From Dehalococcoidia bacterium (GTDB lineage: Bacteria; Chloroflexota; Dehalococcoidia; Lucifugimonadales; SAR202-VII-2), in contig CBDDDS010000003.1 in NCBI GenBank assembly GCA_965226745.1, positions 230,520-294,519 of the forward strand: a DNA stretch of 64,000 nucleotides, in the 5' to 3' direction. The translations under genes and the position numbers were made by a program. The notes under the pieces were generated by a model, which was not told the origin of the DNA, made no database searches, and saw only the letters and a list, made by a program, of their open reading frames with translations. This document shows positions 4,775-61,482 of this stretch, piece by piece (the stretch's first letter is position 1; each line of letters starts with the position of its first letter).

Positions 4775-5545
4775 ATGGCGGGAAGCTGGGGACTGGACGG
4801 CAAGGCTGCATTCATTACCGGCGTGGGCGGCATGGGACGGGCGACGGCCCTCGCCTTTGCTGAGGAGGGCATCCCCGTGGCCGTGACGGACGTCGATCCG
4901 TCGGTGGCGGAGACCACGGCTGGGCTTGTGGCCGACAAGGGCGGCAGGGCGTTGCCCCTAACGTTGGACGTTACGGACTCGTCGGCTGTTGAAGAGGCCA
5001 TCGCCAGGGCCGGGGATGAGCTTGGCCCGATAGACTACCTGTTCAACACCGCTGGCATCGGCCACTACGCCCCTGTGACCGAGATGACCAACGAGGATTG
5101 GACGCGCATGGTGGAGGTGTGCCTGACCGGGACATTCTTCACCTGCCGCGCGGCGCTGCCCGGCATGATCTCCCGCGGCAGGGGGGCGATTGTCAACATC
5201 TCCTCCATGTTCGGGCAGACGGGGCAGGCCAACATGGTGCACTACTCGGCGGCCAAGGCGGGGGTTATGGGTTTGACGAAGGCGCTCGCCCGGGAAATGG
5301 CCGGGCACGGCATCCGGGTCAACGCCATCGCCCCCGGGCCCATCGATACGCCGCTCTGGCGCCGCGGCCTGGAGGGGAAGGACCTGGAGGATATGATGGA
5401 GGGTAGGAGACAGCCGGTGCCCATGAAACGGATTGGGCACATCAGCGAAATCGCCGACGCCGTGATGTACCTACTGAGCCCCGCCAGCAGCTACGTCACC
5501 GGGCAAATACTGCACGTCGGCGGCGGCGAGGTCACGGTCACTTAG
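4775..5545 (+). CDS. SDR family oxidoreductase
   Basis: RBS GAAGGAGG. Rossmann motif AFITGVGGMGRA, NISS, and catalytic YSAAK. Confidence 0.85.
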   Translation: MAGSWGLDGKAAFITGVGGMGRATALAFAEEGIPVAVTDVDPSVAETTAGLVADKGGRALPLTLDVTDSSAVEEAIARAGDELGPIDYLFNTAGIGHYAPVTEMTNEDWTRMVEVCLTGTFFTCRAALPGMISRGRGAIVNISSMFGQTGQANMVHYSAAKAGVMGLTKALAREMAGHGIRVNAIAPGPIDTPLWRRGLEGKDLEDMMEGRRQPVPMKRIGHISEIADAVMYLLSPASSYVTGQILHVGGGEVTVT

Positions 5546-11337: not shown

Positions 11338-11705
11338 TTGCAAAATCCGAACACTTGTGCTATAATATCCCCATGAAGTGGGCCGGGGGCCCGCTTCTCC
11401 TTCTCGGAGCCTGCCGCATAACGTATGTACTGGGGGCTAACCACAGAGAATCCCCCTGTGGCAGGGGCGCTGAGGGAACAACCCTAGGGGCAAGACCGTC
11501 CGAGGAAGGCTGGGACCGGAGCGAATGCCATTGTAAGGCACAGGCTCTTTGGAGCCATCCCGCTCCGTAACGAATCGTAACAACTAGGTAACGGTTCGTA
11601 ACGGCTCCGTAACGACTCGTAACAGCTTTGTAACGGCCTGTAACGCCTTTGTAATGGCTCCGTGCCTGCAAACCCCGAAATCCGGCTGACAAACGTTACA
11701 AAGCC
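11338..11705 (+). ncRNA. copy A of dispersed promoter + structured core + phased-repeat element (candidate novel ncRNA)
   Basis: -35 TTGCAA (11338-11343), 17-nt spacer, extended -10 TGTGCTATAAT (TATAAT 11361-11366). Conserved core to ~11566, repeats 11567-11661, and 3' module CGTGCCTGCAAACCCCGAAATCCGGCTG. Confidence 0.6.
11567..11661 (+). repeat. phased short repeats, GTAAC core, 9 units
   Basis: GTAAC (last unit GTAAT) starts are spaced 10,11,10,11,10,11,10,11 nt, giving a 21-nt super-period. Confidence 0.9.
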
Positions 11706-11734
11706 TCGCTGGCTCGCACAGGCGGGAAAGTCCC

Positions 11735-15998: not shown

Positions 15999-18074
15999 GT
16001 GATACAACTATCGGGGAGGTCAAGATATCGAATGATAGCGAGGAATGATTTGAAGGTAGAGTTCTCAAGGCTGACCTCCGATGATCTAGGCGCCGTCGAC
16101 GACTTGATGAAACGCAATAGCCGAACTCTTGGCTTTCTGCCGACTGAGGCGCTCATCGACTACCTTCACAAGAGACGCGTCTTGGGTGCCAAGATTGGAG
16201 GTGATAGGCTCGTTGGGTACCTGCTCTATGCGCCTATTCAGAGTCGCTTTCGGATTGTTCAACTCTGCGTCTCGCAAGAATTCAGAGGCTACGGCATCGC
16301 GAGCCACCTCCTTGAAGAACTCAAGGACGTTGCTACGACGCAGTCCGCCATAACTCTCAGCTGCCGCCGGGACTTCCCTGCACATTACATGTGGCCGAAA
16401 TTAGGCTTTGTTTCAATTGGGGAAAGGCCGGGCCGTTCCGTAGCTGGGCACCTCTTAACACTTTGGCACCTCCCCCTGAACCCAGCCAATCAAATGGACC
16501 TGGGACTGTTCAAGGCACAAACATCAGATGAGACCATCGATGTCATCATTGATGCCCAAGTATTCTTTGAGCTGTCTAAGCCAGACAGTGATGAGTCGGA
16601 AGGGTCCAAGGCTCTGCTATCTGACTTTTTGGTAGATTCCCTCAACCTTTGGATCACCGATGAATTGCTCAACGAAATCCATCGGAGCGACGACCCCGAG
16701 CAACGACGGGCAGGGCGATCCCGAATACAGCAATTCCCACAGGTGACATATTCTCCACGCTTGGTTGATGACTTCTATAGCCGCTTGATGACTACCCTGC
16801 CCGACCGCACACCCAGCCAAGTCTCCGACATTAAGCATCTAGCGAAGGCTGCCTCTTCCGATGTGAATGTCTTTGTCACCAGAGATCAGTCTCTACTGAG
16901 AAAGGCACAGGAGATTGCAGACTTAACGAATCGCCGGGTGCTGTCCCCAACAGAGTTGATAATTGAGCTCCACGAACTCCTCGAAGGACAGTCCTATGGA
17001 CCTCACCGCGTTTCTGGTCTTCGTCTCGGATGGTATCGCTTTACCGTCCGCGACCTCGCATCTCTTCCGATCGACTCTTTCCTTAACGAAGGAGAAGGGC
17101 AGAGGCAGTTGAGGAGGGAACTGGATCGCTACCTAGTTCGTCCCAACAACTACCAGTGTGAGCTACTCAAAGCGGAGGACAACGATGTCGCAATCCGAAT
17201 CATCCCCACCACTCCTAAGGCGACAGTCACTGTACCCTTGGCCAGAGTAGCGCGCACCGCCGAGCGATCGCTGTTCGGACGCTTCCTGATCGCAGACACT
17301 ATTGCAAAGGCGGTAGACAACAACCAGGACATGGTTGAGTTCGAGCTGTCCGGGCTTACTTCCTCGTTGATACCGGACCTCATGGAGATGGGATTCACAA
17401 GATGCAGGTATACCTTTGCGAAGTTCTGTTTCTCACGCTGCCTCGATCGGGAAGATGCTCTCCAGACGATTGCGACTCTATCACCTGAATTGGAGGCTGC
17501 ATATGACGATGTGTCAGACCTCGAACTTGAACGCTACTGCGCACCTGTGAGTTTAGATGCAGACCAGAACTATTTTCTGGTTCCGATTCGACCAGGTTAT
17601 GCTATCAGCTTGATCGACAGAGCGCTGTCGTCTAGTGACATGTTCGGTGGAGACCCTTCTGTCTTGTTGCGGTGGGAAAACGTCTATTACCGAAAGGCTG
17701 CTACGTCGAGGAAGATTCTGAAGGCCCCTGGGCGCATTCTCTGGTACGTGAGTCGCAGTCAGAAACAGATCGTAGCAGTATCCCATCTTGACGAAGTGGT
17801 GGTCGATACCGCCAAAGTACTTTTCAGGAGGTTCAAGAAGTTCGGGATACTGGGATGGGAGGAACTCTACGGAATGTGCGCCGGTGATACTTCGATGGAA
17901 TTGATGGCGCTGCAGTTCTCCCATACGTTTGTCTTTAGAAGGAGGATTCCATTGAAGGCGGTGCGGATGGTCTATGATGAGGAAGGGAGTGGCTTGACTG
18001 TGCGACTCCCGACACACATGCCGGCGAGCAGATTTCAGAAGCTGTTTAAGCTAGGCTTTCCAGATTGCTCATGA
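15999..18074 (+). CDS. multidomain protein: GNAT acetyltransferase - PIN nuclease - second (degenerate) GNAT-like - C-terminal ASCH/PUA-like domain
   Basis: 691 aa in an AT-richer island. GNAT motif A QLCVSQEFRGYGIASHLLEEL...LGFVSIG. PIN acidic residues (DVIIDAQVFFEL, ITDELLNEI, SDVNVFVTRDQSLL). The C-terminal region (ILWYVSRSQKQIVAVSHLDEVVV...) parallels the downstream ASCH protein. Start is uncertain (GTG 15999 or ATG 16032). Confidence 0.6.
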   Translation: MIQLSGRSRYRMIARNDLKVEFSRLTSDDLGAVDDLMKRNSRTLGFLPTEALIDYLHKRRVLGAKIGGDRLVGYLLYAPIQSRFRIVQLCVSQEFRGYGIASHLLEELKDVATTQSAITLSCRRDFPAHYMWPKLGFVSIGERPGRSVAGHLLTLWHLPLNPANQMDLGLFKAQTSDETIDVIIDAQVFFELSKPDSDESEGSKALLSDFLVDSLNLWITDELLNEIHRSDDPEQRRAGRSRIQQFPQVTYSPRLVDDFYSRLMTTLPDRTPSQVSDIKHLAKAASSDVNVFVTRDQSLLRKAQEIADLTNRRVLSPTELIIELHELLEGQSYGPHRVSGLRLGWYRFTVRDLASLPIDSFLNEGEGQRQLRRELDRYLVRPNNYQCELLKAEDNDVAIRIIPTTPKATVTVPLARVARTAERSLFGRFLIADTIAKAVDNNQDMVEFELSGLTSSLIPDLMEMGFTRCRYTFAKFCFSRCLDREDALQTIATLSPELEAAYDDVSDLELERYCAPVSLDADQNYFLVPIRPGYAISLIDRALSSSDMFGGDPSVLLRWENVYYRKAATSRKILKAPGRILWYVSRSQKQIVAVSHLDEVVVDTAKVLFRRFKKFGILGWEELYGMCAGDTSMELMALQFSHTFVFRRRIPLKAVRMVYDEEGSGLTVRLPTHMPASRFQKLFKLGFPDCS

Positions 18075-18553
18075 CCACAGCGTTGCGATCCTTGATCATC
18101 TCGCTGAAGCCGTGTTATGCCGACTTGTTATTTGAGGGTTTGAAGAAGGTTGAACTTCGGCGACGGATTGCTTCCCAGATAAATGACCGAGACGTGTTCA
18201 TTTATGTTTCCAGCCCAGTTAGGGAATTGCGTGGAGGCTTCCGTGTCGGTCAGGTATGGGAAGGATCACCCGACGCCGTGTGGAACAGTGTGGCTGAACT
18301 GGCGACTGTCGATAGACGGGTATTTGACGCCTATTTCCAAGGTCGGACCGTCGCTTATGCAATAGAAATCACGAATGTGTGGGAATACCAAAGTCCGGTG
18401 GGTCTCAGTTGGTTGAGAGATCGGTTCGAGAATTTTGTTGTTCCGCAGTCGTGGCGATATGCCAAACCTGAAGAGCGAGAGGCCTTCCAGAAGATGAGGG
18501 GACGAGCAAATGAAGAGGCCCAAAATGAGATCATATTGGTTGAAACTACCTAA
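18065..18553 (+). CDS. ASCH domain protein
   Basis: Overlaps the upstream gene by 10 nt. LIISLKPCYADLLFEGLKKVELRRR, DVFIYVSSPVRELRGGFRV, and PQSWRY are typical of ASCH/PUA-like folds. Confidence 0.65.
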   Translation: MLMTTALRSLIISLKPCYADLLFEGLKKVELRRRIASQINDRDVFIYVSSPVRELRGGFRVGQVWEGSPDAVWNSVAELATVDRRVFDAYFQGRTVAYAIEITNVWEYQSPVGLSWLRDRFENFVVPQSWRYAKPEEREAFQKMRGRANEEAQNEIILVETT

Positions 18554-18651
18554 CAGGTGATAAGACGAGTAAGCTGTGCTCACCGCCGGCGTTTCCTGAC
18601 ACCGAGCGAAGGAATGGATTCCCGGCACCGCAATCCGGTTGAAAGGCAGAT

Positions 18652-20127
18652 ATGACAGATAATTCCGCGGACTCCAACAAAGTGCACAAGGAATCGGACA
18701 CGGACACGCTTCCGTCCGTGATCGATAAGCTTGGCGAAATCGCGAGAGCCGCGAGTGGCGGTTCTTTTGTATTTCGAGATGAGCCGAAATACTACCCGGA
18801 AATTTCATCTAGCCTTTACCGAGAGTATAGAACGATGCTCATACCTCTTGGTGATGATGGGTTCGATATCCGTCATGTGGAAGGCGAGATTCTTACCGCC
18901 GCCGCCCGCTACGTTGACGACCTTACACCAGAGGACCTACTAAGCCAGCTCCAACACTACGGTTATCCTACAAACCTGGTTGACTTCACTGCTGACTATC
19001 TCAATGCGCTCTTCTTCGCCTGCCCCAGTGAGCCGAAAAACGATGGTCGCGTAATACTCCTTAACACTGACACCAACCTACTCTTGCGCATGCGGGCCCC
19101 TGCGAACCGTATCAAGGCACAGAAGAGCGTTTTCGTTAGCCCTCCTACAGGGGTCGTCAATCCGGGCCATATTATCTGCTTCCCGAGCGCTCTAAAACTT
19201 CCCATGCTTGAATATCTCAGTTCTTATCACGACATTTCAGCGCAGACGATCCACGACGATATTCAAGGCTTTATCAAGAACGCCGAAATTCACCGAAGTG
19301 CGTACGCGGAGTTTCATATGGGCGGGCTTCACTTGAGCCAAGGACATTTTGAAGAAGCTCTTAGACATTACAACCGTTCAATTGAGTTGAACAGTTACCA
19401 ACAAGCTTCATTCGCAAACCGAGCAGTAACGTTCATAAAAATGAAGAAATACGGTGATGGCATTCAAGATTTCTCTCGAGTGATCACCCTGGATCGCCAT
19501 GATGCGCGGGCGTACCAGGAAAGGGAACGGGCTTACTGGGACAGCGGACAACCGGAGTTGGGGGAGCAGGACTATAGCGAGGCGATACGGCTTGACGAAC
19601 GGCTGGAGGGTGCCTACATTGGGCGTTCTGCCTGTCGTGTAAATCGTAGGGACATCGACGGGGCGATGCAAGACTTAAACTTCGTAATCGACGTGAATCC
19701 CAAGAGCAGCGCAGCATACAAGGGAAGGGGTGTCGCCTTTATGACGGTTGGCAATTACCGATCGGCCCTGGAGGACATAAGTAGTGCGATAGAGATTGAC
19801 CCAACCGATCCGTTCGCCTACATGGGCCGAGCTGTAGTCCACTTTAATATGGGACAATCCCAGGATGCCGTAGATGACTTCGGCAGGCACCTCAGTTTAG
19901 GTGGTGACGACCCGGCCGAGGCCTACTTTCTCCGGGGTATTGCTCTGGTCACCTTGGGAAAGTTTGAGGAAGCGCGTGCAGACCTAGAGACCGCCTTGGG
20001 GCAGGATCCATTTGTTGCTAAACGGGTGATCGCGAAAGTAAGCGACCTCGTCGGCGGGAGCGACAGCCTTATATTGCAGGATGAGGTGCCTGCCGACATT
20101 CTAGAGATGCTAAAACCTGCAGAATAG
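18652..20127 (+). CDS. FRG domain - TPR repeat protein
   Basis: N-terminal FRG-domain hallmarks (FVFRDEPKYY..SSLYRE, LQHYGYPTNLVDFT, RIKAQKSVFV), followed by about seven TPR repeats (aa ~220-470). Confidence 0.75.
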   Translation: MTDNSADSNKVHKESDTDTLPSVIDKLGEIARAASGGSFVFRDEPKYYPEISSSLYREYRTMLIPLGDDGFDIRHVEGEILTAAARYVDDLTPEDLLSQLQHYGYPTNLVDFTADYLNALFFACPSEPKNDGRVILLNTDTNLLLRMRAPANRIKAQKSVFVSPPTGVVNPGHIICFPSALKLPMLEYLSSYHDISAQTIHDDIQGFIKNAEIHRSAYAEFHMGGLHLSQGHFEEALRHYNRSIELNSYQQASFANRAVTFIKMKKYGDGIQDFSRVITLDRHDARAYQERERAYWDSGQPELGEQDYSEAIRLDERLEGAYIGRSACRVNRRDIDGAMQDLNFVIDVNPKSSAAYKGRGVAFMTVGNYRSALEDISSAIEIDPTDPFAYMGRAVVHFNMGQSQDAVDDFGRHLSLGGDDPAEAYFLRGIALVTLGKFEEARADLETALGQDPFVAKRVIAKVSDLVGGSDSLILQDEVPADILEMLKPAE

Positions 20128-20176
20128 CGGCCCAGGGCAAAACAAGACCATCCCCTCCCGCCCCACCACCGCCCCC

Positions 20177-20567
20177 TTGCAAAATAAGAACGAGTGTGCT
20201 ATAATGTCCCCATGAAGTGGGCAGCCGGCCCGCTTCTCTTTCTCGGAGCCTGCCGCATACGTTTAGCACTGTGGGCTAACCATAGAGAATCCCCCTGTGG
20301 CAGGGGCGCTGAGGGAACAACCCAAGGGGCAAGACCCTCCGAGGAAGGTTGGGACCGGAGCCAATGCCGTTATAAGGCACAGGCTGCTTGGAGCTATCCC
20401 GCTCCATTACGGTTCCGTTACGGTTCGTTACGGGGCCATTACGGTTCCTTTACAGATCCCTTACAGCTTCATTACTGCTAGTTACGCCTTGTTACGCCCT
20501 CTGTTACGGCTTCGTGCCTGCAACCCCCGAAATCCGGCTGGCCAGTGTAACAACAAACAATCAAAGG
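20177..20567 (+). ncRNA. copy B of dispersed promoter + core + phased-repeat element
   Basis: -35 TTGCAA 20177-20182, 17-nt spacer, TGTGCTATAAT (TATAAT 20200-20205). Core to 20405, repeats 20406-20513, and 3' modules CGTGCCTGCAACCCCCGAAATCCGGCTG and ACAAACAATCAAAGG. Confidence 0.6.
20406..20513 (+). repeat. phased short repeats, (G/A/T/C)TTAC core, 10 units
   Basis: TTAC starts are spaced 11,10,11,11,11,11,10,10,12 nt. The core is the reverse complement of the GTAAC core of copies A, C and E. Confidence 0.9.
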
Positions 20568-20705
20568 CCTAACCTGCCCCCGGCAAATCCCCCCATCCCT
20601 TCCCTCCACTACGGGCGGAGGTTACGATGGGAGTCTCCCGCCTGGCCTTGGACCCAACGTCCCTGGGAAAGAGAGCTGGCGGGGAGCGGGACAGCGGGAA
20701 GGAGC

Positions 20706-40432: not shown

Positions 40433-41719
40433 TTACAGCCACACGCCGATTTCGGCCCGGTGGTTGAGTTCCGAGAGCGCCCAGACCAGGGCGTCGAGGC
40501 GGTCCGGGCTGGCGCCGCTTTCGGGGATCCAGGTGCAGAGCTGGTCCTCGAGGTCTTCCAGGCCGGGGCCGACGTGGAAGACCTTCCCCTGCTCGTAGAG
40601 TGCGGCGATGGGCTCGGCCCGGACGAGCTTGCCTCGGCTGGCGCGGACGGCCTTGTAGGGAATGGATGCGTCCACCGTGCGGAGGACGGACTCCACGAGC
40701 TCGCCGCCGTTGTTGACCTCGCCGATGATGCGGTCGGCGGCGAACTCCCGGTGCGCCCGCACGGCCCGCCGCGCCCACCCGTCGGGCGACAGCCTGCACG
40801 AGCGGTCGGCGAGGACGTAGAAGCTGCCGTCGACGCCGCGGCCGGCAACGACGATGCCGGTCTCGTCGGCGCTGTCGTTGTAGGAGACGGCGGGGTCGAT
40901 GGCGACGACGACGCGGAGGAGGTCCGGGGCGTCGGGGATGGACTGGAAGACCTTGCGTTGCCAGAGGGCGCCTTCGACGTCGTCAAGAAGCTCGGCGTGG
41001 ACCTCCTGGCGGCCCAGGCGGGTCCCCTCGTAGCGGGCGGCGATCCGTTGGAGGAAGGCCTCGGAGAGGTTGGCCCGGTTCTCGTAGGTGGCGCCGCGAG
41101 TGACCGCCGTTGACGGCGAGGCGAGGAGCTCGCGGATGAGGCGAACGGGCCGGGGGGTGGTGGTGACGACGGTGCGCGGGGGTTGGCCCAAGCGGAGGCC
41201 GAACTGGAGCATGTCCCAGGCTTCCGGGTAGCGCCAGGCGGCCATCTCGTCGCACCAGGCCGCATGGAACTGGGGCCCGCGCAGGCGGTCGGGCTCGTCG
41301 GCGGAGAAGGTGGTGGCGACGACGCCGTTGGGCCAGGTGAGGCGGCGCTTGGACGGCTCATAGGCGGGGCGCTCGTCGGGGTGGCCCACGGAGAGGATGC
41401 CGCTGTGGCCCTCGACCATGACGTCGCGAGCGTCGGCGGCGGTAGGGGCGACGAGGGCAATGCGGCGGGCGTTGTTGGAAGCGGCCTGGGCGCGGACCCA
41501 TTCGGCGCCGGTGCGGGTCTTGCCCCAGCCTCGGCCGGCCAGGACGAGCCAGACAAGCCAGTCGCCGTCGGGGGGAAGCTGGGAGGGGCGGGCCCAGGTG
41601 GGCCAGTCCCACTCCAGGGACTCAGCCGCTCCCGGCGCCAACTCCCGTATCACGCTCTTCCTCAAGGCGGGCTGCGATGCTATCGATTGCGCGCTGGAGT
41701 TCGGCTCTTGCATCCTCAT
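40433..41719 (-). CDS. phage/GTA-type terminase large subunit (apparently intact, orphan)
   Basis: 428 aa. Walker A LAGRGWGKTRTGAEWV. WCDEMAAW. Nuclease region VVAIDPAVS...DETGIVVAG. The start may be an internal GTG, because the ORF overlaps the upstream gene by 98 nt. Confidence 0.85.
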   Translation of the reverse strand: MRMQEPNSSAQSIASQPALRKSVIRELAPGAAESLEWDWPTWARPSQLPPDGDWLVWLVLAGRGWGKTRTGAEWVRAQAASNNARRIALVAPTAADARDVMVEGHSGILSVGHPDERPAYEPSKRRLTWPNGVVATTFSADEPDRLRGPQFHAAWCDEMAAWRYPEAWDMLQFGLRLGQPPRTVVTTTPRPVRLIRELLASPSTAVTRGATYENRANLSEAFLQRIAARYEGTRLGRQEVHAELLDDVEGALWQRKVFQSIPDAPDLLRVVVAIDPAVSYNDSADETGIVVAGRGVDGSFYVLADRSCRLSPDGWARRAVRAHREFAADRIIGEVNNGGELVESVLRTVDASIPYKAVRASRGKLVRAEPIAALYEQGKVFHVGPGLEDLEDQLCTWIPESGASPDRLDALVWALSELNHRAEIGVWL

Positions 41720-42083
41720 CCCTCATCCGTGCTGACTTTTCTGCGGGGTCGCCGGGTTTGGAGTGCCGGACGACGGCGCGCTCGACGATCCACTCGGCGA
41801 CGCTGGTGTCTTTCTCCGCGAGCGCGTCGCTTATCACCTCGACGGCCTCCCCAGCGAGCTGGAGCAGTGCGCCTTCAACCTCCTGCCGATGCGAGCCCGG
41901 CGACGCCAGCGCCGGGTCCGGTCCAGCCTGGGGGTCCGTTCCGTCGCTGCGCTTTGCGTGTTCTGCGCGGTGGGCGGCCACCCGGCAGCGCCCGGAACAG
42001 TAGATAGCGTCTCTCCGCAGAGCAGGGGGGAAGCGGGAGGCGCACCAAGGGCAATAGCGGAGAGAGCGCAAGCTGTAGTTCAT
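41622..42083 (-). CDS. zinc-ribbon protein, possible small terminase/DNA-binding partner
   Basis: 153 aa. N-terminal CPWC...YCSGRCRVAAHR zinc ribbon and an acidic helical C-terminus. Immediately upstream of TerL. Confidence 0.45.
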   Translation of the reverse strand: MNYSLRSLRYCPWCASRFPPALRRDAIYCSGRCRVAAHRAEHAKRSDGTDPQAGPDPALASPGSHRQEVEGALLQLAGEAVEVISDALAEKDTSVAEWIVERAVVRHSKPGDPAEKSARMRDEDARAELQRAIDSIAARLEEERDTGVGAGSG

Positions 42084-42127
42084 ACCACCTCAAGGCGACA
42101 ACAGTCAGAATTCTGGGCGGTGAACGG

Positions 42128-42464
42128 GGCTTTGTAACGTTTGTCAGCCGGATTCGGGGTTTGCAGGCACGGAGCCATTACAAAGGCATTACGAGGCATT
42201 ACAAGCCGTTACACAGTCGTTACGGAGCCGTTACAGAGCGGGATGGCTCCAAGGAGCCTGTGCCTTACAACGGCATTCGCTCCGGTTCCAGCCTTCCTCG
42301 GAGGGTTGTGGGCCTGGGGATGTTCCCCAGACCCTCCTGCCACAGGGGGATTCTCTGTGGTTAGCCCCCAGTGCATACGCTATGCGGCAGGCTCCTAAGG
42401 AAGAGAAGCGGGCCTAGGACCTACTTCATGGGGGTACTATAGCACAACTGTTCTTATTTTGCAA
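42128..42464 (-). ncRNA. copy C of dispersed promoter + core + phased-repeat element
   Basis: On the minus strand: -35 TTGCAA (42459-42464), 17-nt spacer, TGTGCTATAGT (-10 at 42436-42441), conserved core, repeats 42171-42234, and 3' module CGTGCCTGCAAACCCCGAATCCGGCTG. It ends 44 nt before the ATG at 42083. Confidence 0.6.
42171..42234 (-). repeat. phased short repeats, GTAAC/GTAAT core, 6 units
   Basis: The minus strand reads GTAACGGCTCC GTAACGACTGT GTAACGGCTT GTAATGCCTC GTAATGCCTTT GTAATGGCTCC. Confidence 0.9.
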
Positions 42465-42520
42465 TAGGGGGGTGGCGGGGGCCCCGGACTCCGGCGTCCG
42501 CCCGCCGATGGGGACGGATG

Positions 42521-42745
42521 GTTTTGTCTTGGCCTGCGCCCTCCATCAGCGAAGGGTCTGGCTTGGCGTGCGCCGCTATCCCGCCCGCACCACCCTCCGA
42601 CGTTTTTGGGTACAGGGGGACTCCCCCTGTACCCCCGGCGGGGGCTGCGCCCCCTGCACCCTGCTTGGGGGGAGGGAGAGGGCTTGCGTTGGCGCGTCCG
42701 GGCGCTTCCTAACCTGCCGCTGGGTACGGGGGTAGGGAGAGAGGG
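42521..42745 (+). repeat. R-family mosaic hairpin repeat, promoter-proximal flank of copy C
   Basis: TTTTGTCTTGGCCTGCGCC...GTACAGGGGGACTCCCCCTGTAC...GGGGGCTGCGCCCCC...CTTCCTAACCTGCC. Confidence 0.8.
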
Positions 42746-42912
42746 CTTACGGTGGGTGTGGGGGCTGCATTCAGCGGTCGACTCGTATGCGGAGCACGCC
42801 ATGCTCGTTGGGGAGGGTGGCTTTGGTCCGGTCGGCCATCGGCTCCCAGGGCGACCAATCCAGAGGGAATTACATACCTAATTACACACGGGGCTGAGCC
42901 CTGGATTGAAGA

Positions 42913-43363: not shown

Positions 43364-43636
43364 CTACCTGTTACGAGTCGCCCACAACTCTCGAAACTGT
43401 TCGCCGCTCAGCGGGCAATCAACTAACTGGTTCAATCCTTCCTTAGTCAGACTCAGTCGTTTGGCTGTATCGGCAAGAATAAAAGAAGACAATTGACCGC
43501 GACTCGAATGGGAGAACTTGGCCGCCCGGTAGTCTAGTCCATCAATCGTTATCCAACAATAGACATGGTGGGAGCTTCTATCCTCAATCGCTCCCAGCTT
43601 ACGCTTCAGAACGCTTCGTAAGTCCCTACTGTCCAC
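43364..43636 (-). CDS. small protein, weakly HicA-like
   Basis: 90 aa, the last gene of a tightly packed three-gene operon. The SSHHVYCW...SHSSRGQLSSFILADTAKRLSL pattern is reminiscent of HicA-type toxins, but the assignment is uncertain. Confidence 0.4.
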   Translation of the reverse strand: MDSRDLRSVLKRKLGAIEDRSSHHVYCWITIDGLDYRAAKFSHSSRGQLSSFILADTAKRLSLTKEGLNQLVDCPLSGEQFRELWATRNR

Positions 43637-43638
43637 CG

Positions 43639-44040
43639 CTAGACGTTAGTCCTGATGCGGACTAGGTTACGGAGTATCTCTAGGTCTTCAGTAGCTGGTG
43701 GCCCCAGTCTTTGGAGGCGCGCCTCCAATGACTGATAGTAGCCACTCAAGGACCTAAGAAGGTCTAGTATTGCATCCTCGAACGAGGTTCCCACTCCGTA
43801 TTCCTGAACTGTCAAATAGGTGATAGCCACCACTTCTTCCCATGAGGTGTAAATCTCAACTATAAGGTCACGGATCAATTCCCAAGAGTCGTCCCAAGAG
43901 TGTTGGGCAGGAACGACATACAGGCCCTGACTCGAAGTGGTATTCCCCGCGTGATTAGTCCCAACATGCAGAGATGTAAGCACCATAGGTTGAAGTGTAG
44001 ATGTATCGACCCTCAACTCGTGAGTCCCTGAAGTCGTCAC
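43639..44040 (-). CDS. small protein with HicB/UPF0150-like C-terminal half
   Basis: 133 aa. VAITYLTVQEYGVGTSFEDAILDLLRSL resembles the HicB N-domain pattern. It begins by overlapping the upstream gene (ATGA). Confidence 0.4.
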   Translation of the reverse strand: MTTSGTHELRVDTSTLQPMVLTSLHVGTNHAGNTTSSQGLYVVPAQHSWDDSWELIRDLIVEIYTSWEEVVAITYLTVQEYGVGTSFEDAILDLLRSLSGYYQSLEARLQRLGPPATEDLEILRNLVRIRTNV

Positions 44041-44351
44041 CCTAAACTCCCATTCGATCCCCAGAACGCATTCCAGTCTTCAGGGGATATTCCTAGTTGA
44101 TTCAAGACTTGCTGGGGGACTTCATATCGTACCCCTAGCTCCGTCTCCTGTCGGATTATCTGTCGTCTGATTATAAAAGTCAAAGCCTTCAGGTGTTCGT
44201 TGCTCATTCTGATAGTACCGAGTACGGATGGTTGCGGAGTAGATGCTGGCTCGGGGTGAGCCTCTCGCAATTGGAAGCCCAAGTTAGCGCCCCAAGGGCC
44301 AGTCGTGACTAAGAAAGCGTCGGAGTAAATATCGAATGGTTCCATAATCAT
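44037..44351 (-). CDS. DUF3467-like small protein
   Basis: DIYSDAFLVTTGPWGANLGFQL...IRMSNEHLKALTFIIRRQI..ETELG resembles DUF3467. Start is uncertain (44351, 44345 or 44378). Confidence 0.4.
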   Translation of the reverse strand: MIMEPFDIYSDAFLVTTGPWGANLGFQLREAHPEPASTPQPSVLGTIRMSNEHLKALTFIIRRQIIRQETELGVRYEVPQQVLNQLGISPEDWNAFWGSNGSLG

Positions 44352-44832
44352 CCCCACGTGGCCTATGCTGCCTTGCAAGCGATCTCCGAATCACCGTTCG
44401 GGAGGTTGAGGGCCCTAGTCCGAGCCGGGTCGCCCGGAGACCGCTGTTGTGTCTGTCTGACGATAACTCGCCCTTGCTACCCAGCCGGTAGCTCTACAAT
44501 CACATTCTAACATCCCAAATCATTCACCATCGCTTGCCATACTGTCAACCCCTGCCTTGACAAGCTCCTCTCACCTAGTGAGACCACCTACCCGCTATAG
44601 CAGATGGTTCTATCAATCCGAGTCACAAGCACTGGATAAGGGGAAGCCTGCCCCCTTGTTGGCTCGCGCTGGTAGACGGGTCTGCTGTAGCAAGTGCCCT
44701 GCTATCCTGGGCCGGAAGAGGGTTCCCTTGTACATGCTGCTTGCCAAGTTCACCTTGGCTGCTGGGGGGTAGCATGGGCGGTGGCGGTGGGGGATGGTGG
44801 CGGTGGAGGCTGGCGGGTTGTTTAGGGCGACC

Positions 44833-46458: not shown

Positions 46459-47394
46459 GTGGACATTCTGGTTTCCGGCTCACTGGCCTACGACCGCATC
46501 ATGGACTTTCCGGGCAGGTTCTCGGACCACCTGTTGCCGGGGAAGGCCCACGTCATCAATATCTCCTTCACCGTAGACAAGATGGTGGAGAACTTCGGGG
46601 GCACGGCGGGCAACATTGCCTTCGCGCTGGCGATGCTGGGAGAGAGGGCGCGGATACGGGCCACTATCGGCAGCGATTACGACCGCTATTTCCGGTGGAT
46701 GGGGGAGCACGACATCTCCACGGCTTCGATCAGGATCGTTGAGGAGGAGCTCACGGCGTCGGCGTTCATTACCACCGACCTCGCCGACAACCAAATCACC
46801 GCCTTCAATCCCGGGGCGATGAAGCAATCGGCGGGGAGCGATATGGCGGGAATCGACTCCAAGGACGCCATCGCCATCGTCTCTCCGGGAAACGGCGACG
46901 ACATGACCGGGTACGCGGGCGCCTACCGGGACGCCGGTTTGCCGTTCATCTTCGATCCCGGCCAGTCGATTCCGGTGTTGTCGGGAGAGCAGTTGCTGGA
47001 GGGGATTCGAGGCTCGCGGCTGCTCATTGCCAACGACTACGAGATGGAGATGATCCTTGGGAAGGCGGAGGTGGAGCAGTCCGAGCTTCTGGAGCTGACC
47101 GAGGCTATCATCACGACCCGCGGGGAGCATGGCTCGGTGATCTCGGAGGTGGATGGGGACAACTCGATCCCGGCGATTCCCCTGTCGAATGTGGTAGACC
47201 CCACGGGGGCCGGAGATGCCTACCGGGCCGCTCTCATCAAGGGGCTGATCGAGGGGAAGGACCTGGTAACCTGCGCCAAGATGGGGACGGTGTGCGCCGC
47301 CTACGCGGTGGAGGTATACGGGACGCAGACGTACCGCTTTACGGCGGAGGAATTCAAGGAGCGGTACGAGCAGCATTTCGGGCCGCTGTACTAG
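46459..47394 (+). CDS. PfkB-family carbohydrate/nucleoside kinase
   Basis: GTG start 6 nt after GGAGG. GGTAGNIAFAL and the PfkB signature VDPTGAGDAYRAALI. Confidence 0.85.
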   Translation: MDILVSGSLAYDRIMDFPGRFSDHLLPGKAHVINISFTVDKMVENFGGTAGNIAFALAMLGERARIRATIGSDYDRYFRWMGEHDISTASIRIVEEELTASAFITTDLADNQITAFNPGAMKQSAGSDMAGIDSKDAIAIVSPGNGDDMTGYAGAYRDAGLPFIFDPGQSIPVLSGEQLLEGIRGSRLLIANDYEMEMILGKAEVEQSELLELTEAIITTRGEHGSVISEVDGDNSIPAIPLSNVVDPTGAGDAYRAALIKGLIEGKDLVTCAKMGTVCAAYAVEVYGTQTYRFTAEEFKERYEQHFGPLY

Positions 47395-47407
47395 GGCCTG
47401 TAGCACA

Positions 47408-48070
47408 CTGGCGGGGGCTGCGCCCCCTGCACCCCGCTTGGGAGTGGGGGGAGCGTCGCTTTCTTGCCTGGGCGCTTCCGGACCCCCATCCTAACCTTCC
47501 CCCGAGTACAGGGGCAGGGACAGAGCAGCCCCCTGCACCCTGCTTGGGAGTGGGGGTTTTGTTTTGGCCTGCGCCCTCTTTCAGGGGAGGGTCTATTTTA
47601 GCCAGCGCCGTTGTCCCACCTGGCCCACCCTCCAACGTTTTTGGAAACAGGGGGACTCCCCCTGTACCCCCGGCGGGAACCAAGGGTTCCCTGCACCCTC
47701 CTTTGAGAGACAGGTGAGGCCTTCGCTTAGCATTGCGGGGGACACGCTGTAGCCCCAGCGGGGGCTGCGCCCCCTGCACCCTGCTTGGGGAACGGAGGGT
47801 CTTGTTGTGGCCTGCGCCTTCTTTCAGGGGAGGGTCTGGCTTGGCCTGCGCCGTTGTCCCACCTGGCCCACCCTCCAACGTTTTTGGAAACAGGGGGATT
47901 CCCCCTGTACCCCCGGCGGGGGCTGCGCCCCCTGCACCCTGCTTGGGGAACGGGGGGAGCGTCGCTTTCTTGCCTGGGCGCTTCCGGACCCCCATCCTAA
48001 CCTGCCCCTGTACTCGGGGGCAGGGACAGAGCAGCCCCCTGCACCCCCGCTTGGGGGAAGGGGGTTTGCG
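47408..48070. repeat. ~660-bp array of mosaic R-family repeats filling a convergent intergenic region
   Basis: About three ~230-bp units, each built from modules GGGGGCTGCGCCCCCTGCACCCTGCTTGGGG, TTGGCCTGCGCC...CAACGTTTTTGGAAACAGGGGGA-TCCCCCTGT and CTTCCGGACCCCCATCCTAACCT(T/G)CCCC-loop-GGGGCAGGGACAGAG. Confidence 0.85.
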
Positions 48071-48079
48071 TGCGGGTTT

Positions 48080-49270
48080 CTAGCTGCCGTTGCCGAGGCC
48101 GAAGTATTGGGCGACGGTCCCGACGGTGAGCATGTAGCGCTCCTCTTCTGAGAGGCCGGCGCTGCACTCCTCGATGATGCTGTCGGAGTTGGGCCAGTCC
48201 GACTCCAGGTGGGGGAAGTCGTTGGCCCACATGATGCGGTCCAGCCCTCCCACAGCCTGGGCGATGCGCACGCCCACGGGGTTCCTGTTCATGCCCCACC
48301 AGAAGTGGTCGTGGGCGTATTCGCTGGGCCATTTGGGCAGTTGGGGCAGTCCGAGGACGCGCTCGACCCAGAAGCGCTGCCGCCCGTACTCATTGTCCAG
48401 GGTTTCGATCCAGTGGGGCACCCAGCCGTACTGGACCTCGGCGATGTACATCCTCAGCTCTGGCAGGCGGTCGAAGACGCCGGACCAGATCATCTGGGTG
48501 GCCTGGAGAGCGCCCCGGAAGCCGTACTTGTTGAAGCGGTCCACCATGTCGGGGACGCCCATCTCCGGGTCCGGCGTCTTCGAGTACTTGAAGGCCGGCT
48601 GCGGGGGGCCGCCCGCGCCCCGGGGAGGGAAGCCAAAGGCGACATGGATGGTCAGGGCGATGCCAAGGTCGATGGCCTTGGCGTAGAACTCGTCGTCTTG
48701 CGGGACGGGGTAGGACTGGCCGCTGGGGAAGCTGTTCATTTGCACGGACCGCAGGCCGATCTTGGCGCAATGCTCCAACTCGGCGACGGTGGTTTCCAGA
48801 CTCTTGACGACCGGGATGACGCCTACGCCAATGAGGCGGTCCGGGTTGTGGGCGCAGTAGTCCAGGGCGAGCCAGTCGTTGTAGGCCCTGCAGAGGGCGA
48901 CGTAGGCGTTGTCGTTGCGGATGCCGCGCCACCAGGATGCGCCGATTGTGCCGGTGTAGAGGACCTCGGCGTCGACGCTGTCCACGTCCTGTTCCCGCAG
49001 GCGCTGCTCCGGGGAGCCGGTGCCAGGGGAGTCTTCATAGCTGTCGGCGGGATCGGGGTCGAAGGGGCGGCGTTCCTCGTAGGGCTTGCCGCAGTTGATG
49101 CTGGAGATCAAGCGCTCGATGGGCTTGCCCTCCTGCACGACGGCGCGGATGCCGTCGTGCATGGTGACGACCCGCGGCATGTGGCCCTGGAATTCCTCGG
49201 GGACGCGGGCGGTGTACCTGTCCGGCCTGACCTCGAGATGTGAGTCCGCTGAGATGCGACGGTACTTCAT
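48080..49270 (-). CDS. amidohydrolase family protein
   Basis: 396 aa. ISADSHLEV N-terminal metal site, and WANDFPHLESDW C-terminal motif. Confidence 0.85.
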   Translation of the reverse strand: MKYRRISADSHLEVRPDRYTARVPEEFQGHMPRVVTMHDGIRAVVQEGKPIERLISSINCGKPYEERRPFDPDPADSYEDSPGTGSPEQRLREQDVDSVDAEVLYTGTIGASWWRGIRNDNAYVALCRAYNDWLALDYCAHNPDRLIGVGVIPVVKSLETTVAELEHCAKIGLRSVQMNSFPSGQSYPVPQDDEFYAKAIDLGIALTIHVAFGFPPRGAGGPPQPAFKYSKTPDPEMGVPDMVDRFNKYGFRGALQATQMIWSGVFDRLPELRMYIAEVQYGWVPHWIETLDNEYGRQRFWVERVLGLPQLPKWPSEYAHDHFWWGMNRNPVGVRIAQAVGGLDRIMWANDFPHLESDWPNSDSIIEECSAGLSEEERYMLTVGTVAQYFGLGNGS

Positions 49271-49444
49271 GGGGCCTCCCGAGTCCGCCTGGGCGTAGAC
49301 CGCTTCCAGGGCCGGTGGTTTCAGGTTGGCTCAGTATGGCACTGCCCTCAAAATGGTGTCAAACCGGCCAGGGTGCCCCTAATCCACCACCCAACCGGCG
49401 TTGCGGCTCTGGTGGGCGCTTTTGCTCTGCCGGCGGTTGGCGGT

Positions 49445-49555
49445 GGCTGACGCCGCTATCCCGCCCGCTCCGCCCTCGGAGGTTGGGGGTACAGGGGAGA
49501 ACCCCCTTCCTAACCTTCCCCCGAGTACGGGGGCAGGAACAGAGGGACGCTTCCC
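49445..49555. repeat. R-family repeat fragment
   Basis: GCCGCTATCCCGCCCGCTCCGCCCTC...TTCCTAACCTTCCCCCGAGTACGGGGGCAGGAACAGAG. Confidence 0.75.
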
Positions 49556-49567
49556 AGCCTTCCTGCG

Positions 49568-49947
49568 GGATGGGCAGGGTTCCCCCGGCTTCGGTCTCTT
49601 CCTTTGATTGTATGTGTTCCTGCTTTTTCTTCTCCCCCGGCGCCCCGTAGTCGTGGAGCCGTCGCGTAGCCGTCGTGGAGCTGTCGTGGAGCTGTCGCGT
49701 AGCTGTCGCGGATGCGTCGCGTAGCCGGATGGCTCCAAAGAGCTTGCCTTACAACGGCATTCGCTCCGGTCCCAGCCTTCCTCGGACGGTCTTGCCCCTA
49801 GGGATGTTCCCTCAGCGCCCCTGCCACAGGGGGATTCTCTATGGTTAGCCCCCAGTACATACGTTATGCGGCAGGCTCCAAGGAAGAGAAGCGGGCCGGG
49901 GGCCCACTTCATGGGGAGACTATAGCACAAAGGTTCGCATAATGCAA
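49568..49947 (-). ncRNA. copy D of dispersed promoter + core + phased-repeat element
   Basis: On the minus strand: -35 TTGCAT (49942-49947), 17-nt spacer, TGTGCTATAGT (-10 at 49919-49924), conserved core, repeats 49651-49727, and a 3' module shared with copy E (…ACATACAATCAAAGG…GGGGGAACCCTGCCCATCCC). Confidence 0.6.
49651..49727 (-). repeat. phased short repeats, exact 11-nt period x7, GTCG(T/C)G core (plus-strand reading)
   Basis: GTCGTGGAGCC GTCGCGTAGCC GTCGTGGAGCT GTCGTGGAGCT GTCGCGTAGCT GTCGCGGATGC GTCGCGTAGCC. Confidence 0.95.
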
Positions 49948-50002
49948 TAGGCGTGGGGCATAGGCTTCCCCCGCGGCGGGGGGCAGGGATTTGGGATGGG
50001 TG

Positions 50003-50350
50003 GGCTTGTTGTGGCCTGCGCCTTCCTTCACCGGAGGGTCTGGCTTGGCGTGCGCCGCTATCCCGCCCACACCGCCCTCTGACGTTTTCCAGGACAGGGG
50101 GACACCCCCTGTACCCCCGGCGGGAACCAAGGGTTCCCTGCACCCTCCTTTTGGGAGACAGGTGAGGCCTTCGCTCAGCATTGCGGGGGACTCGCTGTAC
50201 CCTCGGCGTGGGCTGCGCCCCCCTGCTCCCCCGCTCGGCGGCGGTCGCGAGCTTGCGTTGGCGGGGCGTGGCGCTTCCTGGCCTGCCAACGGGCGCGGGG
50301 GCGTGGACAGAGGGTTGCCCCGTAGCCGGGGCAGGGGTGGTGGAGAGGGG
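50003..50350 (+). repeat. R-family mosaic repeat, promoter-proximal flank of copy D
   Basis: Same module order as 42521-42745 and 61508-61660. Confidence 0.8.
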
Positions 50351-61036: not shown

Positions 61037-61482
61037 GGGATGGGCAGGGTTCCCCCGGCTTCAGCCTCATTCTTTGATTGTTTGTGATTCTTTGATTGTT
61101 TGTGCGCCTGCTTTTTCTTCTCCCGTAGGCGTGGAGCCGTTACAAAGGCGTTACAAGCTGTTACAAGGGCGTTACGTTACGAGCCGTTACGAGCCGTTAC
61201 GAGTCGTTACACAGTCGTTACGGAGCCGTTACTGATCTTACGAGCCGTTACGGAGTTGGGCGGCTCCTAAAGAGCCTGTGCCTTACAGCGGCATTCTCTC
61301 CGTTCCCGGCCTTCCTCGGAGGGTCTTGCCCCTCGGGTTGTTCCCTCAGCGCCCCTGCCACAGGGGGACTCTCCATGGTTAGCCCCCAGTACATACGTTA
61401 TGCGGCAGGCTCCGAGAAAGAGAAGCGGGCCTGGGGCCCACTTCATTGGGGGTACTATAGCACACCCGTTCGTATTTTGCAA
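61037..61482 (-). ncRNA. copy E of dispersed promoter + core + phased-repeat element
   Basis: On the minus strand: -35 TTGCAA (61477-61482), 17-nt spacer, TGTGCTATAGT (-10 at 61454-61459), conserved core, repeats 61139-61251, and a 3' module shared with copy D that includes an 18-nt tandem duplication (61069-61104). Confidence 0.6.
61139..61251 (-). repeat. phased short repeats, GTAAC core (GTTAC on plus strand), 12 units
   Basis: Spacing is 9-11 nt, with one 5-nt doublet (GTTACGTTAC). Confidence 0.9.

Follow-up and report, generated by a model that had tools for sequence, protein, structure and literature searches.

Predicted promoter, structured leader and helically phased array at the head of a zinc-ribbon/terminase cassette in Dehalococcoidia

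Described systems and the layout of the locus

The pac sites of the phages SPP1 and SF6 consist of direct repeats that span the promoters and the start of the small-terminase gene (PMC4737164). About 100 bp of DNA with an intrinsic bend are selected there by a ring of domains that each bind DNA weakly, which gives protection at regular intervals; recognition proceeds mainly via DNA shape and depends little on the repeats, which are poorly conserved between related phages (PMC4737164). The locus described here lies in a 64-kb window (64,000 nucleotides, the whole stretch of DNA analysed) from a Dehalococcoidia bacterium, where one copy of a dispersed repeat element, copy C, directly precedes the genes for a 153-aa zinc-ribbon protein in small-terminase (TerS) position and a large terminase (TerL). 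Copy C resembles SPP1/SF6 pac in that direct repeats occur at the start of the small-terminase-position gene, near a promoter. It differs in that the small protein carries a zinc ribbon instead of a helix-turn-helix and matches no TerS family, in its 10-11-bp units with a strict 4-5-nt core, and in the 190-nt structured leader between promoter and array. Furthermore, a bacterial chromosome carries at least about 70 copies of the element, and TerL is not accompanied by capsid or portal genes in this genome. By analogy, the element would work most like a pac-type recognition and leader region.

Arrays of short sites, phased by about one helical turn and cooperatively bound by a small phage protein near promoter or terminase genes, are present in lambda cosB and in the P2 Cox and 186 Apl box arrays. 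These have one sequence per phage and are not known to be transcribed within a conserved structured leader or to be dispersed over the host genome, and the element differs from them in all three respects. High-copy intergenic modules with predicted RNA folds, some of them with promoters, include BOX in Streptococcus pneumoniae, REP/BIME, Correia and the 'mobile promoters'. The likeness to BOX concerns the architecture only, i.e. a 5' module, variable tandem units and a 3' module. In BOX the units measure about 45 nt and terminal inverted repeats are present, whereas the units of the element are 10-11 nt long and no such repeats were found; each copy also carries a complete predicted promoter, and a terminase cassette, truncated to various extents from the 3' end, can be recognised as the source of the family. 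The high intergenic copy number typical of BOX and of miniature inverted-repeat transposable elements is present, but not the terminal inverted repeats. In ToxI of the type III toxin-antitoxin systems, repeats of about 34-36 nt are followed by a terminator and then by an endoribonuclease toxin gene. ToxI and the element share a promoter, tandem repeats and a position directly upstream of a co-transcribed protein gene whose product is a possible binder, but the units here are 10-11 nt long, a terminator is lacking and a zinc-ribbon protein and TerL are encoded downstream. Pfam, PHROG and NCBIfam scans of the two cassette proteins, none of them aimed at defence families, returned no toxin-antitoxin or abortive-infection family. 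No relevant work came up in literature searches on GTAAC repeats, on repeat RNAs of Dehalococcoidia and on small terminases with a zinc ribbon.

Copy C is encoded on the minus strand, running from 42464, the first base of the -35 hexamer, to 42084, immediately before the ATG at 42083. It shares its orientation with the 153-aa open reading frame (ORF; 42083..41622) and the 428-aa ORF (41719..40433), and the 3' end of the zinc-ribbon ORF overlaps the longest TerL ORF on the same strand. The stretch contains the following features:

42436..42464, minus strand: predicted sigma-70-type promoter; -35 TTGCAA (42464-42459), 17-nt spacer, TG-extended -10 TATAGT (42441-42436)
42240..42429, minus strand: conserved leader (5' domain) of about 190 nt with a predicted multi-helix RNA fold; about 90% identity among copies
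42177..42234, minus strand: array of six units; GTAAC at 42234, 42223 and 42212, GTAAT at 42202, 42192 and 42181
42128..42176, minus strand: tail, GGCTCCGTGCCTGCAAACCCCGAATCCGGCTGACAAAC then CGTTACAAAG; CGTTACAAAG is an inverted copy of the array unit, with GTTAC at 42138-42134
42084..42127, minus strand: 44-nt link to the zinc-ribbon gene with the ribosome-binding site (RBS) GAGGTGG at 42091-42085; kept only in zinc-ribbon-linked copies
41622..42083, minus strand: 153-aa zinc-ribbon protein in small-terminase position; N-terminal CxxC...CxxxC, variable linker, conserved helical C-terminal domain
40433..41719, minus strand: TerL, 428 aa, intact; Walker A AGRGWGKT, Walker B WCDE, RNase H-like nuclease domain

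The promoter of copy C is near-consensus and is the sole promoter-like site between 41500 and 42700, where 0.1 would be expected. Transcription is predicted to start at about 42429, at the A of the ATGAAGT with which the leader begins, and a sequence scan of the minus strand found no terminator-like site between this promoter and the zinc-ribbon gene. The six units follow each other at distances of 11, 11, 10, 10 and 11 nt with GGCTC-like spacers, and TRF reports a repeat of period 11 and 6.4 copies at 42172-42239. The array ends 94 nt upstream of the zinc-ribbon ATG, and the link contains the motif GTTGTCRC..GAGGTG.TATG, which is conserved in zinc-ribbon-linked copies.

A preliminary description of this DNA had placed copy C directly upstream of, and co-oriented with, an orphan zinc-ribbon/TerL pair, with 44 nt between the end of the element (42128) and the ATG. 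Coordinates and strands agree with this, and the claim of an intact TerL is borne out by Terminase_6N and Terminase_6C matches and readable motifs. The pair is also orphan in this genome, as TerL is followed in the window by genes for an HtrA-type protease and an ECF sigma factor, while two relatives keep a portal. As a fallback, it had been suggested that the element supplies promoter and leader of the operon, which is in line with TTGCAA-17-TATAGT, its extended TG and the absence of a terminator before the gene. Together with the comparisons below, this shows the region to be a predicted promoter and leader, co-transcribed by prediction with the zinc-ribbon and TerL genes, and of cassette descent.

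With moderate confidence, copy C can be considered as the native head of a small cassette, and not as a repeat that has landed next to a terminase, with the array as the predicted DNA site of the cassette's small protein. In this arrangement, the predicted sigma-70 promoter would give rise to a structured leader of about 190 nt, followed by six GTAAY units one helical turn apart and by an inverted unit. Transcription would then continue, for lack of a terminator, to the RBS of the clade-specific zinc-ribbon gene in small-terminase position and on to the intact TerL. The array itself would be a cis-acting region, bound on double-stranded DNA by the cassette's own small protein, i.e. a phased and bendable segment, 60-140 bp in length, for binding or wrapping by an oligomer similar to a small terminase. 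Such binding may serve the initiation of packaging or only the regulation of the operon. The other copies, numbering at least about 70 per genome, are derivatives of the cassette head.

Synteny with the terminase and origin of the dispersed copies

Conserved synteny between element and terminase genes in relatives had been set beforehand as a check of the preliminary description, and it is found at all loci that were chosen without reference to the element. Three loci in other assemblies were reached via TerL homologues of about 90% identity (L005, L006 and L007), and the element is located directly upstream of the zinc-ribbon gene in each of them. Their flanks differ: L005 agrees with the window on the HtrA/ECF-sigma side, in L006 TerL is followed by a portal, and L007 deviates on both sides. 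Five further loci were reached via the zinc-ribbon protein (L154-L158, with L157 coming from the window's own 3.33-Mb genome as a second locus there); the element lies upstream in all five, and TerL is present in none. The element is thus directly upstream in eight of eight loci, and in each the array occupies the position expected of a pac or cos site, just upstream of the gene in TerS position. In zinc-ribbon-linked copies, homology runs without interruption through the 44 nt to the RBS and the ATG, and therefore element and zinc-ribbon gene constitute one unit.

The outgroup locus L001, with a TerL of 80% identity, carries a similar promoter and a hairpin with U-run ahead of a 119-aa ORF, a TerL gene and an HK97-type portal gene. 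The 119-aa ORF is homologous to the C-terminal half of the 153-aa protein, and L001 contains neither the zinc-ribbon domain nor the array. At 9625-9700 of L001, the promoter TTGCGA-17-TATACT is followed at once by a perfect hairpin and U-run (CGAGGTGGGCC ttccc GGCCCACCTCG TTCTTTTT), which is attenuator-like. The first hairpin of the element may be descended from a hairpin of this type.

When the leader pattern was run on a species-representative genome collection, at least 64 stretches were returned, 62 of those listed being from OZ253584.1, a 3.09-Mb Dehalococcoidia chromosome. The collection matches L042 and L045, outside OZ253584.1, were rejected, since they have no match to the family profile and that of L045 lies at the start of a coding region. 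In the JGI metagenomes there were two matches, both by chance and inside coding sequence. The element is hence restricted to a very narrow clade.

Scanned with the profile, OZ253584.1 contains at least about 70 copies, including tandem pairs of the same orientation that are a few hundred bases apart and often differ in array type (L016, L064, L015, L048, L054, L038 and L071). In many of the OZ253584.1 copies, the start of a zinc-ribbon gene comes next, intact or broken, with fragments of 28-164 aa. Alignment to the full cassette L061 reveals a fixed left boundary, with every copy starting about 10 nt upstream of the -35 hexamer, and nested right ends. Most copies stop after the leader, where the arrays differ; others end at 4665-4706 of L061, and further ends at 4840-4938, 5099 and 5133 lie within this cassette's zinc-ribbon gene or at its end. 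The copies in L006, L018 and the window run beyond TerL. No fragments of any other gene are common to the copies, and past the tail only other repeat modules are found. The fixed left end, the nested right ends and the zinc-ribbon fragments indicate that the dispersed family derives from the cassette. As judged from these alignments, the juxtaposition at copy C is the founding configuration, from which the solo copies derive by 3' truncation. Neither cut-and-paste elements nor 5'-truncated retro-copies would be expected to combine a constant left end with right ends that are nested.

The 428-aa protein is a large terminase by Pfam (Terminase_6N, E=3.3e-30; Terminase_6C, E=1e-14) and by PHROG (terminase large subunit), and related proteins of about 60% identity are common in viral contigs. 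TerL is intact in the window, L005, L006, L018 and L061. Comparison with four relatives, including two paralogues within OZ253584.1, gave a ratio of non-synonymous to synonymous substitution rates (dN/dS) of about 0.2 at a dS of about 0.2; by this measure TerL, with both its ATPase and its RNase H-like nuclease domain in place, is under purifying selection. The G+C content (GC) of terL is 0.70, as compared to about 0.64 in the neighbourhood, and the segment 40001-42000 has the highest GC (0.70) and GC at third codon positions (0.92) of the window, which suggests an origin or codon regime unlike that of the surrounding genes. In L004 (9935-10999; ENA ERZ28763718 ctg125183, apparently the same genome), the window TerL is matched in two pieces, residues 1-200 and 255-428, with a gene call of 333 aa; this split is probably a long-read indel error rather than biology.

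The zinc-ribbon gene is located directly upstream of, or overlaps, terL on the same strand, as is the case for small terminases, and the same holds for L005, L006, L018 and L061; by sequence, its product belongs to no known TerS family. The helical C-terminal domain is well conserved. The family comprises 35 members in 5.8 billion proteins, all of them from one narrow Dehalococcoidia clade, and neither the zinc-ribbon protein nor its C-terminal domain has homologues beside related TerL in 80 viral loci. A PDB profile search with the 153-aa protein gave no match (best E = 0.29), and its AlphaFold model is unreliable (predicted local distance difference test score, pLDDT, of 55).

An HK97-type portal after TerL is found only in L001 and L006, and the L006 cassette consists only of TerL, a 154-aa protein, the portal and a few unassigned ORFs. 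Close homologues of the L006 portal come from other contigs, and none with more than 60% identity comes from the window's own 3.33-Mb chromosome or from the 3.09-Mb chromosome. The terminase is therefore truly orphan there.

Array, tail and leader as a putative DNA site or RNA

Within one array the core of 4-5 nt is uniform, while the 5-6-nt spacers vary in sequence, as they also do between orthologous arrays. Across copies, the cores are GTAAC/GTAAT, NTTAC, GCGAC/ACGAC/GCGAT, GTCAC, GTGAC and GTTGC/GTGGC, and a pyrimidine-purine step (TA, CG, CA or TG) can be read in every type. Spacings of 10 and 11 are about equally mixed in GTAAC arrays (mean about 10.5), and the mean is about 10.65 in NTTAC arrays and about 11 in GCGAC arrays. 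An array contains 6 to about 13 units, and 6-13 is inside the range of small-terminase ring sizes. The cores of orthologous cassettes are GTAAY in the window, GCGAC/ACGAC in L005, GCGAC/GCGAT in L007, NTTAC in L018, and GTCAC/GTGAC in L006, L061, L155 and L156.

On the opposite strand, NTTAC units read GTAA followed by C (40%), T (37%), A (17%) or G (6%), and the fifth base of GTAAN arrays is C in 69%, T in 29% and G in 3%. The two types may thus represent one double-stranded motif in opposite orientations. The spacer GG.CT has the same orientation in both array types, and a single central A-to-T change per unit accounts equally simply for the change from GTAAC to GTTAC. An inversion of the array in copy B was set aside, because the spacers keep their orientation and one such change per unit suffices.

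The array is considered a putative DNA site because it offers one core per helical turn with free spacers, has an inverted copy nearby and is positioned at the head of the gene in TerS position, and because zinc ribbon and array are jointly present or absent, L001 lacking both. Locus L154 (3717-4000) also counts in favour of a protein-bound DNA site: promoter, tail, zinc-ribbon gene and an array that mixes GCGAC with GTCGC/GTCAC are kept, despite replacement of the 190-nt leader by about 50 nt of C-rich sequence. If recognition were based on shape, as for pac, the diversity of cores would be tolerable.

Several observations weigh against binding of the array by the cassette's small protein. 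The diversity of cores, within one genome and between orthologous cassettes, excludes one fixed sequence specificity, and a single GTAAC specificity in particular is contradicted. The best-conserved part of the element is the promoter with its RNA-like leader, which a pure DNA-site model leaves unexplained, and the complementarity between unit and tail, 8-12 nt long and tolerant of G.U (GUAAU with GUUAC), fits RNA pairing better than a protein half-site. The putative binding protein is close to neutral in its evolution, at a dN/dS of 0.6-0.9, has no Pfam, PHROG-TerS or NCBIfam match, and has often lost its N-terminal zinc knuckle (CxWR in L005, L155, L156 and L044); in L005 the cysteine-lacking protein adjoins an intact TerL. 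In the viral sequence space, the element is absent from IMG/VR contigs, and TRF found no comparable arrays upstream of related TerL in 67 viral contigs, a search of limited sensitivity that also missed the degenerate L006 control. Finally, the window contains no portal match and no structural genes near TerL, so that the head-tail genes of a gene transfer agent are missing beside it, and the absence of close cassette-portal homologues from both chromosomes described above points in the same direction. A role of the arrays in packaging initiation or terminase recruitment, as also proposed in the preliminary description, is a minority possibility.

One tentative alternative, a good deal less probable than a protein-bound DNA site, locates the function at the RNA level. 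Each copy would be an independent gene for a structured non-coding RNA with a multivalent 3' array, the last unit of which would pair with the tail in a hairpin with a stem of 8-12 bp. Complementary arrays (GUAAC/GUUAC, GUCAC/GUGAC and GCGAC/GUCGC) could pair in trans or titrate an RNA-binding factor, and the cassette leader would control translation or read-through of the zinc-ribbon/TerL operon. A parallel for such leader control is provided by leader-RNA immunity in P4/P1-type elements. This possibility is consistent with the promoter hexamers, which are kept in every copy while the spacer between them drifts, and with the conservation of the leader. Past about 17 codons from the leader ATG, the copies split into two reading frames over the same conserved nucleotides, and therefore the leader is conserved at the nucleic-acid level.

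The predicted leader helices comprise a 5' hairpin (GAAGUrGGyC...GGCCCGCUUC), which is followed by a U/C-rich run, a long-range pairing of CUCYUUCUCGGAG with CUCCGAGGAAG, and a pairing of CCUGCCGCA with UGUGGCAGG. The fold has a free energy of -136 kcal/mol (z = -2.8), and when it was placed on 48 distinct copies, 92.5% of cells were paired, as compared to 38-56% with partners slid. Many changes across these copies convert G-C to G-U, and 11 double-sided changes contrast with 3.9 ± 1.6 in shuffles. The overall covariation score is nevertheless unexceptional, being matched by 76 of 500 shuffles, and the sequences are close paralogues from few genomes. The leader fold is thus likely, but not proven. 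In copy C, the RBS is also predicted to pair with an upstream CACCGCC, with modest z-scores.

The tails provide further support for pairing. In type-1 tails, GGCTGA... is followed by a reverse complement of the array unit, and one inverted copy is found about 50 bp downstream. In copy C, 42129-42139 forms inverted repeats with 42229-42239 (91%) and with 42207-42216 (90%). The complementarity covaries over four core types and extends past the core: GTAAC arrays are combined with CGTTACAAAG (8-12 nt of perfect complementarity), NTTAC arrays with GTAAC, the GCGAC array of L154 with GTCGC (TCGCGACGC, 9 nt, in common), and the GTGAC arrays of L155, L156, L044 and L009 with GTCAC. In copy B (20403-20512, plus strand) every unit is NTTAC and the tail is GTAAC, as opposed to GTAAC units and a GTTAC tail in A, C and D, which constitutes a concerted change. 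Over 35 copies, the best match between array and tail averages 5.89 nt, versus 5.18 ± 0.22 after re-pairing, and none of 200 re-pairings reaches this value. Folding of copies A, B, C and L154 yields the hairpin between unit and tail. Where GTAAT units accompany an unchanged GTTAC tail, G.U pairs are possible on the transcribed strand only. The family as a whole is modular, with two tail types and several array types in varied combinations.

RNA-level function is less compatible with other features. Most GCGAC arrays have no matching tail, the z-scores of the 3' fold are unremarkable, the strict 10/11 alternation and the spacer-independent cores lack an obvious RNA rationale, and L154 keeps array and gene without most of the leader. 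Rfam gave nothing at gathering thresholds over the whole window and only chance-level matches (E = 3 and 6) at permissive E-values on copy A, and a tRNA/tmRNA scan found no match. RNA pairing and a protein-bound DNA site are mutually compatible, and the former explains features that the latter does not.

Dispersed copies, their surroundings and their significance

A scan of the whole window with a family profile built from the copies identified five full copies in 64 kb:

11338..11723, plus strand: copy A; GTAAC array with strictly alternating 10/11-nt spacing; next gene convergent
20177..20593, plus strand: copy B; NTTAC units (GTTAC/ATTAC/TTTAC), GTAAC in tail
42464-42096 (profile match), minus strand: copy C; GTAAC/GTAAT array, zinc-ribbon/TerL next
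49570..49947, minus strand: copy E; seven GCGAC/ACGAC units of strict 11-nt period, purine-rich type-2 tail (GGGGGAGAAGAAAAAGCAGG...ACAATCAAAG)
61040..61482, minus strand: copy D; GTAAC array of about 11 units, type-2 tail

Four copies had been counted previously, to which E (49947-49570) is now added, and copy B, which had been assigned GTAAC units, lies on the plus strand with NTTAC units instead. The promoter and the 190-nt stretch are common to all five, and the array type of copy E also heads the zinc-ribbon gene in the relative L005. GTAAC occurs 62 times in the window, as compared to 44.7 ± 6.7 in shuffles (0 of 100 reach 62), with the excess clustered in the arrays, for which TRF reports periods of 10-11, 21 and 42. 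The neighbours of the five copies differ and include a convergent gene, a luciferase-like monooxygenase, the zinc-ribbon/TerL pair, an amidohydrolase, and a 78-aa ORF with an amidase.

A dispersed repeat of selfish or neutral nature is a second alternative, as doubtful as function at the RNA level. The cassette head would then be one module of the clade's mosaic intergenic repeats and the solo copies would be functionless, having spread or been homogenised via recombination among flanking REP-like modules; adjacency to the terminase would only record their origin. The high copy number in a single 3.09-Mb chromosome, the intergenic location, the tandem pairs, the modular tails and arrays and the very narrow clade all agree with this, as does the absence of an orientation preference. 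Copies that are not linked to a zinc-ribbon gene have the same orientation as the next gene in 20 cases and the opposite one in 27 (p = 0.38), and a role of the element as dedicated 5' leader of whichever gene follows was rejected for these copies. Other repeat modules are also found on both sides of the element. On the other hand, hexamers, cores and phasing are kept in nearly all copies while spacers and flanks diverge, which points to selection or very recent spread. Terminal inverted repeats were not found, including any that would join both ends of copies A, C or D, no transposase is associated, and the sharp left boundary with nested right ends is unlike that of cut-and-paste or REP-type elements.

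The flanking modules are themselves dispersed and intergenic and occur in varying combinations at 42470-42900, 47350-48150, 49400-49560 and 49960-50300, and modules of the same kind lie upstream of most copies in L008-L071. They include a palindrome (GGGTACAGGGGGASTCCCCCTGTACCC) and a unit (GGGATAGCGGCGCAGGCCAAGCCAGACCCTCCGCTGAAGGAGGGCGCAGGCCA), and form a BIME-like mosaic repeat landscape. The tail of copy D contains a perfect 18-nt tandem duplication at 61069-61104 (ATTCTTTGATTGTTTGTG x2), which on the element strand corresponds to the ACAAACAATCAAAGAAT motif of type-2 tails. Directly upstream of copy B, a low-GC island (16000-20130; 0.52 versus about 0.64) contains three genes, encoding a 691-aa GNAT acetyltransferase-domain protein that weakly matches PIN_3, a 162-aa protein of no family, and a 491-aa FRG-domain protein with TPR; the island is horizontally acquired in appearance and possibly defence-related. 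Just upstream of copy C, the minus strand carries three adjacent or overlapping small genes of 90, 133 and 113 aa (43364-44378; GC 0.57), none of which has a Pfam match.

It is improbable that the orphan zinc-ribbon/TerL pair uses the dispersed copies as functional entry sites. In this case, on the order of 100 phased, promoter-coupled pac-like arrays would allow a domesticated or satellite-like terminase to package host DNA unidirectionally into borrowed capsids, with chromosome-wide transduction as the outcome. The fixed left and nested right ends would represent the scar of re-inserted, end-anchored DNA fragments, and the different cores would be matched to zinc-ribbon subfamilies as specificity groups.

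Translation of a small secreted or lipoprotein-like peptide (MKWAGGPLLLLGAC...) from a leaderless mRNA, with the ATG about 7 nt after the -10 hexamer, is very unlikely. The ATG is at the expected start and the first 16 or so codons are conserved and lipobox-like, but the copies continue in two frames after codon 17, and translation from the leader ATG of 44 copies yields ORFs of 2 to 173 aa, with stops at codon 17 in six copies and at codon 2 in two. As had been described, this pseudo-ORF is broken in copy C (ATG AAG TAG), but it is not a gene in any copy, as the frames differ while the nucleotides are conserved. Least credible of all is a chance juxtaposition of a common repeat and a decaying prophage fragment: with five copies in 64 kb some copy would adjoin almost anything, but the element is directly upstream at eight of eight independent loci with differing flanks, zinc-ribbon fragments travel with the repeat, and the 44-nt link and RBS are conserved.

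Should the cassette's small protein indeed bind the array, nature would offer here a very clean case of a packaging-type recognition site, with one short motif per helical turn, and the protein would be a non-canonical zinc-ribbon 'small terminase'. The cis-element would then have been multiplied to at least about 70 chromosomal copies, with TerL still selected without a cognate portal. Should the function reside in the RNA, uncultured Dehalococcoidia would contain a large family of promoter-driven structured RNAs with concertedly evolving arrays that is absent from Rfam. Either way, precise sites and a 153-aa candidate partner are at hand, and the combination bears on the domestication of terminases, on the choice of DNA by satellites and transfer agents, and on the spread of promoter-bearing repeats.

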